Assembly (NCBI GenBank): GCA_965235115.1 | Contig: OZ249436.1 | Span: forward strand, 5,458,001 to 5,522,000 | Length of the DNA stretch: 64,000 nucleotides | Direction: 5' to 3' | DNA from: Laetmonice hystrix | Taxonomy: Eukaryota | Part shown: piece after piece, positions 53,326 through 53,970 of the stretch | Layout: each line of letters opens with the position of its first letter | How positions within the stretch are numbered: position 1 is the stretch's first letter | Position numbers and translations under genes: made by a program | The notes under the pieces: model-generated | What the model was told of the DNA's origin: nothing | What the model saw: the letters and a program-made list of their open reading frames with translations, nothing else | Databases searched by the model: none

Positions 53326-53403
53326 TCATACCCACGGAGTCCAGCCTTCGTATAACATACACAGGTTGTCGAGGCTCGTCGCCTCCCTGATCACGTAGTC
53401 AAC
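53326..53403 (-). CDS. SMG1: SMG1 last coding exon (FATC domain)
   Basis: [25 protein letters not shown], matching the SMG1 FATC C-terminus; acceptor TGTTGCAG. Confidence 0.97.
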
Positions 53404-53970
53404 CTGCAACAGCAACCAAAGGTACACTTAGTAAGATACGCCTCCCTGATCACGTAGTCAACCTGCAACAGCAACCAAAGGTACACTTAGTAAGATACGC
53501 CTCCCAGATCACGTAGTCAACCTGCAACAGCAACCAAAGGTACACTTAGTAAGATACGCCTCCCAGATCACGTAGTCAACCTGCAACAGCAACCAAAGGT
53601 ACACTTAGTAAGATACGCCTCCCTGATCACGTAGTCAACCTGCAACAGCAACCAAAAGTACACTTAGTAAGATACGCCTCCCTGATCACGTAGTCAACCT
53701 GCAACAGCAACCAAAGGTACACTTAGTAAGATACGCCTCCCTGATCACGTAGTCAACCTGCAACAGCAACCAAAGGTACACTTAGTAAGATACGCCTCCC
53801 TGATCACGTAGTCAACCTGCAACAGCAACCAAAGGTACACTTAGTAAGATACGCCTCCCTGATCACGTAGTCAACCTGCAACAGCAACCAAAGGTACACT
53901 TAGTAAGATACGCCTCCCTGATCACGTAGTCAACCTGGAACACCAACCAAAGGTACACTTAGTAAGATAC
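53380..53970 (-). repeat. 59-bp array of the SMG1 last intron/exon junction, 10 copies
   Basis: Unit on -: TATCTTACTAAGTGTACCTTTGGTTGCTGTTGCAG|GTTGACTACGTGATCAGGGAGGCG. Confidence 0.97.

Follow-up and report, generated by a model that had tools for sequence, protein, structure and literature searches.

Introduction

The original paper on amphioxus 'mirages' is said to be that of Canestro et al. in 2002. The mirages of amphioxus Adh3, the globin genes BflGb6 and BflGb9, troponin C and PGBD5 consist of tandem copies of an intron-exon boundary and, in the case of BflGb6, where the end of an intron and the start of an exon recur in 3-6 units, RT-PCR suggested that splicing is regular (PMC3087553; PMC3902484). 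Tandem repeats at splice sites have also been described in humans, namely, the donor-side VNTRs of F7 IVS7 (37 bp), CBS IVS13, 6-16, LMNB2 and PDGF; only the authentic site is used in the F7, LMNB2 and PDGF arrays, and those of 6-16 and CBS leak to the nearest pseudo-sites (PMC1557585).

Here, an array of ten near-identical acceptors is considered at the last intron-exon boundary of SMG1 in Laetmonice hystrix. The window, i.e., the whole stretch of 64,000 nucleotides that was analysed, covers bases 5,458,001-5,522,000 of a contig 73.8 Mb long, from an animal assembly that totals 627 Mb. Positions without a prefix refer to the window, and those bearing an L prefix are counted within the locus so labelled. 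The array is very probably a 'mirage' minisatellite, tolerated as a by-product of repeat expansion and most likely neutral. As such, it is a known kind of array, here extended to a lophotrochozoan worm and to an essential NMD gene.

Results

The SMG1 terminal-acceptor array

The 3' end of the gene comprises the following features.

52496..53325, minus strand: probable 3' UTR (covered by a spliced contig down to 52671)
53326..53403, minus strand: coding part of the SMG1 terminal exon, 25 FATC residues plus TGA (translation, homology and Pfam)
53380..53970, minus strand: acceptor 'mirage' minisatellite, 59 bp x 10.0 (repeat and gene model)
53404..53438, minus strand: authentic 3' splice site (branch-point-like TACTAAG, tract, CAG), to which a contig of run X4 joins the upstream exon
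53439..53970, minus strand: nine upstream decoy acceptors, at 53934, 53875, 53816, 53757, 53698, 53639, 53580, 53521 and 53462
53404..56429, minus strand: last intron, 3026 nt, GT...AG, phase 0 (gene model)
56430..56536, minus strand: penultimate SMG1 exon (AVQERNSY...SVAEQ), the end of which is found in the loose end of the X4 contig
56959..57012, minus strand: SMG1 exon n-2, 54 nt (gene model)

Tandem Repeats Finder assigned the array a period of 59, 10.0 copies, 98% matches and no indels. Each 59-bp unit is composed of 35 intron-type nt, containing TACTAAG (with a candidate branch A 25 nt 5' of the exon), a U/G-rich tract and CAG, followed by the initial 24 nt of the SMG1 terminal exon, which encode VDYVIREA. 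Exon-like sequence starts at 53934, 53875 and so on to 53462 and 53403, in steps of 59, and CAG is kept in all ten units. Departures from the common unit are few, with the outermost copy showing two changes, one unit a single change in the tract, and two units one change each in the exon part. The last acceptor reads the same as most decoys, its score (7.8) is nearly equal to that of the outermost one (7.6), and its strength is ordinary for SMG1 (rank 40 of 62, ascending). In these respects, the preliminary description was borne out by the repeat finder and by a listing of the units: there are ten 59-bp copies with acceptors (the G of each AG) from 53935 to 53404, the composition given for the unit is accurate, and nine near-identical sites indeed have to be skipped.

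The two units altered in the exon part, those at 53580 and 53521, have W for R. Were such variants to reach the coding copy by unequal exchange, they could present a small mutational hazard for the FATC domain.

Three features of mirages are present in the SMG1 array, namely, a head-to-tail, minisatellite-like arrangement, a unit that lies across the host intron-exon boundary, and a splice signal in many units. The 645-bp stretch that holds the array and the terminal coding sequence has one match in the assembly, in a search that skips very common words, which marks the array as born locally from host sequence rather than from a dispersed element. Being 98% uniform and unique to the SMG1 locus, the array fits a young one. 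Downstream, overlapping ATTAAA/AATAAA motifs at 52506-52496 offer a candidate poly(A) signal. The probable 3' UTR also contains a stop-free frame of 190 codons (52580-53152, minus strand) with no Pfam match.

Translated in frame with the upstream exon, a decoy leads to a 23-residue tail that lacks most of FATC. This tail is identical for seven of the nine upstream copies, and the other two differ from it by W for R. Only the tenth copy runs into the FATC domain, yielding a 25-residue peptide (VDYVIREA plus 17 more residues) that aligns with the C-terminal 25 residues of human SMG1 (E 1e-7), finds SMG1 as its best solved-structure matches and scores 46.4 bits against Pfam FATC (PF02260; cut-off 25.3). 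The decoy peptide matched no Pfam family. Together with a gene model that aligns along full-length SMG1 homologues, these similarities identify the gene as SMG1, a PIKK with a C-terminal FATC domain and the SMG1 insertion, in line with the earlier assignment of the gene and of FATC to the last copy alone. Use of any decoy would replace the last 17 residues of the protein. These include the residues corresponding to human L3646 and W3653, which occupy positions 14 and 21 in the terminal peptide by the numbering of the structure match and both of which matter for SMG1 kinase activity according to a report that cites Morita 2007 (PMC2752028); the view that decoys cost residues needed by the kinase was thus well founded. 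Among the 42 homologue C-termini printed, 41 are intact FATC ends and one (P0026) is extended.

The SMG1 gene model and its sister arrays

Homologues drawn from two protein searches, together with 200 kb of upstream genome, yielded an SMG1 model with 62 consecutive introns, all with clean GT-AG ends, whose joined exons form one open frame of 3338 codons. In a FastTree analysis of 22 SMG1 proteins, the window protein groups with those of Owenia and Lineus within the lophotrochozoans and away from amphioxus, with no clear branching order among the three.

Within the SMG1 introns, 18 arrays of at least 100 bp account for 26% of intron bases, in a count that leaves out the first four SMG1 junctions and arrays <100 bp and treats one compound array as two; across the 264 kb examined, such arrays fill 20.5%. 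Eight of the 18, in 8 of the 62 introns, extend across a splice site into exon sequence, six at acceptors and two at donors. Apart from the terminal-acceptor array, these and related repeats of SMG1 are as follows.

57527..59330, minus strand: 67-bp donor array, about 25 copies (60-74 bp unit), repeating the last 46 nt of exon 59416-59285 plus the donor GTAAGT
L002:334-1230, minus strand: second donor-spanning array, 8 x 113 bp
L004:394-756, minus strand: acceptor array, 91-bp unit
L004:4075-4881, minus strand: acceptor array, 74-bp unit
L004:9136-9423, minus strand: acceptor array, 43-bp unit
L005:6068-6832, minus strand: acceptor array, 76-bp unit
L005:7329-8890, minus strand: acceptor array, unit of about 63 bp
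L005:5918-5997: donor duplication, 2 x 40 bp (<100 bp and so uncounted)
L005:1034-1503: intronic array without exon bases, ending 0 nt before an acceptor
L002:3903-4057: intronic array without exon bases, ending 4 nt before an acceptor
L004:6147-6356: intronic array without exon bases, ending 16 nt before an acceptor
L004:8566-8781: intronic array without exon bases, ending 39 nt before an acceptor

The six acceptor arrays carry 5, 20, 24, 40, 43 and 52 exon nt per unit, and one of them precedes the kinase exon with the catalytic loop GLGDRHLDN. In all eight spanning arrays, the frame is kept by the copy that adjoins the remainder of the exon. Modulo three, the unit lengths show no pattern, with 0, 1 and 2 all represented, and in two of the five other acceptor arrays the decoys do not have the same sequence as the authentic acceptor. 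The presence of eight spanning arrays makes the FATC array one of many in this gene.

Distribution of arrays relative to splice sites

The positions of the arrays were compared with a null in which every array was collapsed to one unit and the seeds were placed randomly, an analysis based on one gene and a small control, with array ends as called by the program. Eight boundary-spanning arrays were observed against 3.5 expected (3.8 without one 12.8-kb intron; p about 0.012-0.015), such that placement by pure chance fails as an explanation. Seven of the 18 overlap an acceptor or end exactly at one (1.8-2.0 expected; p about 0.001), and 10 of the 18 end within 40 nt of an acceptor (3.0-3.4 expected; p about 0.0002), a distance picked post hoc; the four intronic arrays listed above that contain no exon bases contribute to this crowding. 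Two of the 18 lie at donors; when the six acceptor arrays were compared directly with the two donor arrays, the difference was non-significant (p 0.29).

As control, six dynein heavy-chain genes (25,038 bp) were considered. Arrays of at least 100 bp occurred in one of the six, which holds three, two of them on acceptors.

L028:97-498 (contig C18): dynein acceptor array, 39 bp x 10
L028:2334-3225 (contig C18): dynein acceptor array, 79 bp x at least 11
Contig C18: dynein 56-bp array starting about 20 nt past a donor, the three arrays all lying within 3.2 kb

Given this patchiness across dynein genes, the SMG1 rate (8 of 62 introns) is not transferable to the genome. Exon prediction in the 264 kb found only five isolated candidates outside SMG1 and no second large gene among its neighbours. 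The same part of the dynein AAA_6 profile (81-117) matched twice, 1.2 kb apart (G000:C6:15670526-15670636 and 15671728-15671838), suggesting that either an exon or a long boundary segment has been duplicated.

The plain explanation for the acceptor excess would be biased survival, in that deletions removing an array would be constrained beside a branch point, a tract and an exon. A bolder explanation is biased birth. That minisatellites in this worm arise or persist more readily at 3' splice sites than elsewhere, with splicing or transcription pausing at acceptors making duplication non-random, is at present a tentative and rather doubtful proposal. The literature searched, which lacks most subscription papers, yielded no account of boundary arrays in lophotrochozoans and none of an acceptor bias across a genome.

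Acceptor choice in a spliced contig

Four public runs (X1-X4) contain the SMG1 3' end, all from one sample and none on record as RNA. Contigs were placed on 50200-53497, a stretch that includes two units of the array. Run X4 (58 million letters) covers this stretch in a patchy manner. Its contig 28, 861 nt long at depth 28.7, aligns to 52671-53407; beyond this come 124 letters with no counterpart in the stretch, the first 30 of which are the end of the penultimate exon; the match runs on to 53407 because the end of that exon and the end of the intron have four letters in common. This one contig links the penultimate exon (donor 56430) to the last acceptor, with the unique sequence of the terminal exon following. 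As the contig joins two exons at GT/AG ends, X4 was taken to be probably RNA-derived. A retrocopy as the source of the spliced contig was ruled out by the single genomic match.

At 53377, within the terminal exon and three bases past the end of the array, contigs of X1 and X4 show a silent difference in a Thr codon. The animal is heterozygous across the SMG1 array region. Contig 28 carries the other allele at this position and so may report a haplotype other than that of the assembled array.

Were decoys used in a leaky or regulated manner, a real share of transcripts would encode an otherwise full-length SMG1 lacking FATC, with a stop in the last exon, and array length would tune the kinase. 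All ten acceptors are intact and score alike, and the tail that would be lost holds residues needed for activity (PMC2752028). Precedents exist as well, since two human donor arrays leak to pseudo-sites (PMC1557585) and ABCA7 splicing tracks VNTR length (PMC5954066). On the other hand, the spliced contig that was recovered has the last copy, evidence that speaks for the presence of the authentic splice and not for the share of decoy joins, given that contigs lose rare forms. None of the four X4 contigs covers 53408-53497, the intron part of the unit, an absence not counted against decoy use. A device built around FATC is also at odds with the seven other splice-site arrays of SMG1, whose unit lengths bear no relation to frame, and with arrays in unrelated genes; the uniformity and uniqueness of the unit fit a young array, and all but one of the printed homologue ends retain an intact FATC. 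Use of the decoys at a meaningful level is accordingly considered unlikely. The idea of a copy-number dial specific to FATC, raised in the preliminary description, is not supported in view of the seven sister arrays, and amphioxus mirages are reported to leave splicing undisturbed (PMC3087553; PMC3902484).

Recursive splicing would have a decoy used first, with the junction recreating a CAG/GTTGAC donor from which a second step would reach the last acceptor and give normal mRNA. At recursive splice sites, or ratchet points, an AG followed by a GT regenerates a strong donor in very long introns. The SMG1 decoys resemble ratchet points in that AG directly precedes GT, such that AG/GT does arise at the junction, and the mature mRNA would be the same as the observed contig. 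They differ in that the intron spans just 3 kb and the donor falls below every true donor: in a matrix built from SMG1 itself, a computed score rather than an assay, CAG/GTTGAC scores 0.17, under each of the 62 true donors, whose leave-one-out scores start at 1.1 and have a median of 5.9; T at +3 is found in just one of these 62 and A at +5 in three. A usable regenerated 5' splice site was thus not found at the decoys by this score. Moreover, the exon part of most other SMG1 acceptor arrays starts without GT, so those arrays must be skipped by a non-recursive route. With the recreated donor ranking so low, the re-splicing earlier proposed for this junction is highly improbable.

The array in sequencing reads

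Runs X1, X2 and X3 cover 50200-53497 evenly. The depth of the collapsed unit contig relative to its flanks was 424 vs 52 in X1 and 473 vs 54-67 in X2 (about 8x), and 160 vs 33-37 in X3 (4.4-4.8x), such that two runs agree with the ratio of 7.4-7.8 predicted from the assembled array and one is lower. Because depth is not copy number and the sample is possibly the assembled one, these values establish a multi-copy array rather than an exact count. That the assembler over-expanded a short repeat is scarcely credible, for although no contig spans the array, X3 reaches a lower ratio and every run comes from one sample, X1 and X2 give about the depth expected, distinct unit variants occur in an ordered pattern, and the reads contain both unique flanks.

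Other features of the window

A 1392-nt inverted repeat, 100% complementary, has arms at 10886-12277 and 12897-14288 with 619 nt between them, and overlaps exons of a gene for an FkbM-type methyltransferase (PF05050 at 10633-10998 and 12238-12636); either the inverted duplication took place very recently or the assembly is folded back on itself here. Nearby, a 32-bp unit is repeated 41 times (9304-10607), with AG/GT in each unit, the array stopping some 50 nt short of a putative acceptor in the methyltransferase gene. A perfect (AGA) run of 56 units occupies 17610-17778. A single 361-codon frame at 28492-29577 (plus strand) encodes a rhodopsin-family receptor (PF00001) amid some 38 kb that are otherwise rich in minisatellites.

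Discussion

The reading of the SMG1 array as a tolerated mirage minisatellite can be cast as a series of steps. A 59-bp stretch across the last intron-exon boundary would have been duplicated in tandem and would have grown to ten units, presumably by ordinary minisatellite turnover, be it slippage or unequal exchange, with the extra units serving as intron filler. The innermost copy would then be chosen, most likely as the only one with a full exon, its predicted enhancer content and a link to poly(A). Each decoy, by comparison, would be followed after 24 nt by another intron-like tract, probably with no usable donor behind it, and the best donor score of any GT in the unit is 0.2. Choice between duplicated sites was reportedly set by flanking exon sequence in the work of Reed and Maniatis of 1986. 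Given purifying selection on FATC, such an array would presumably be tolerated only while decoy use is low.

Other ideas were considered and rejected. A stronger authentic site is contradicted by the letter identity of the last acceptor with most decoys, micro-exons formed from single units by the low score of every GT in the unit, and masking of the decoys by RNA structure by the poor folding of the region, which was worse than that of 20 of 20 shuffles (z +6.1).

Several points weigh against the account given here. The poly(A) site lies about 900 nt away and so separates the copies weakly, and transcript support for the neutral reading amounts to a single contig, from a run not recorded as RNA and from one sample, which moreover carries the other allele at 53377. 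Exon definition favours the site nearest across the exon, and in humans the choice among alternative 3' sites tends overall towards the upstream one, a tendency that is milder where exon definition applies (PMC9225289). In light of this upstream lean, the skipping of nine identical acceptors is not self-evident. The leak seen in the 6-16 and CBS arrays (PMC1557585) and the excess of SMG1 arrays across splice sites over random placement count on the same side.

Taken singly, the locus matters little, being a known oddity found in one more gene. At the same time, ten near-identical acceptors, nine of them with a lethal-looking outcome, provide a ready-made test of how a 3' site is chosen when sequence cannot decide, one that would separate the contributions of exon content and the poly(A) link from first-come scanning. 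If copy number were to set decoy use, inherited differences in repeat length would turn NMD strength up or down, although nothing here points that way. If, moreover, the acceptor bias were general, thousands of genes would carry decoy acceptors arising from a mutational route coupled to splicing, and the genome would offer a natural test of choosing the last among many identical acceptors. A genome-wide acceptor excess would link splicing to where tandem duplications arise or survive.

Of the systems described earlier, the human VNTRs (PMC1557585) resemble the SMG1 arrays in that the first or last unit crosses the exon boundary, the pseudo-sites are identical and the authentic site dominates, the 67-bp donor array of SMG1 at 57527-59330 being their direct counterpart. 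The human donor arrays are explained by a 5'-to-3' choice of the first site, a rule that does not extend to the SMG1 terminal exon, where the last of ten acceptors is picked. For a dial based on length, the precedent is the intronic VNTR of ABCA7, for which an effect of length on both splicing and expression was measured (PMC5954066).

The closest likeness is to the amphioxus mirages. The SMG1 array departs from these in its host, a lophotrochozoan worm, and in its position at a terminal exon, with no downstream donor to define the exon; length instability, furthermore, was shown in amphioxus, whereas the runs available for the SMG1 array give collapsed contigs of one sample. Regular splicing was reported in amphioxus, and in SMG1 the authentic join is present in one contig. 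In amphioxus (PMC3087553; PMC3902484) as in the worm, a boundary of the host gene is copied in tandem, with AG/GT kept in many units and several arrays per gene, and BflGb6 shares with SMG1 the very same layout, in which each unit joins the 3' end of an intron to the start of an exon.
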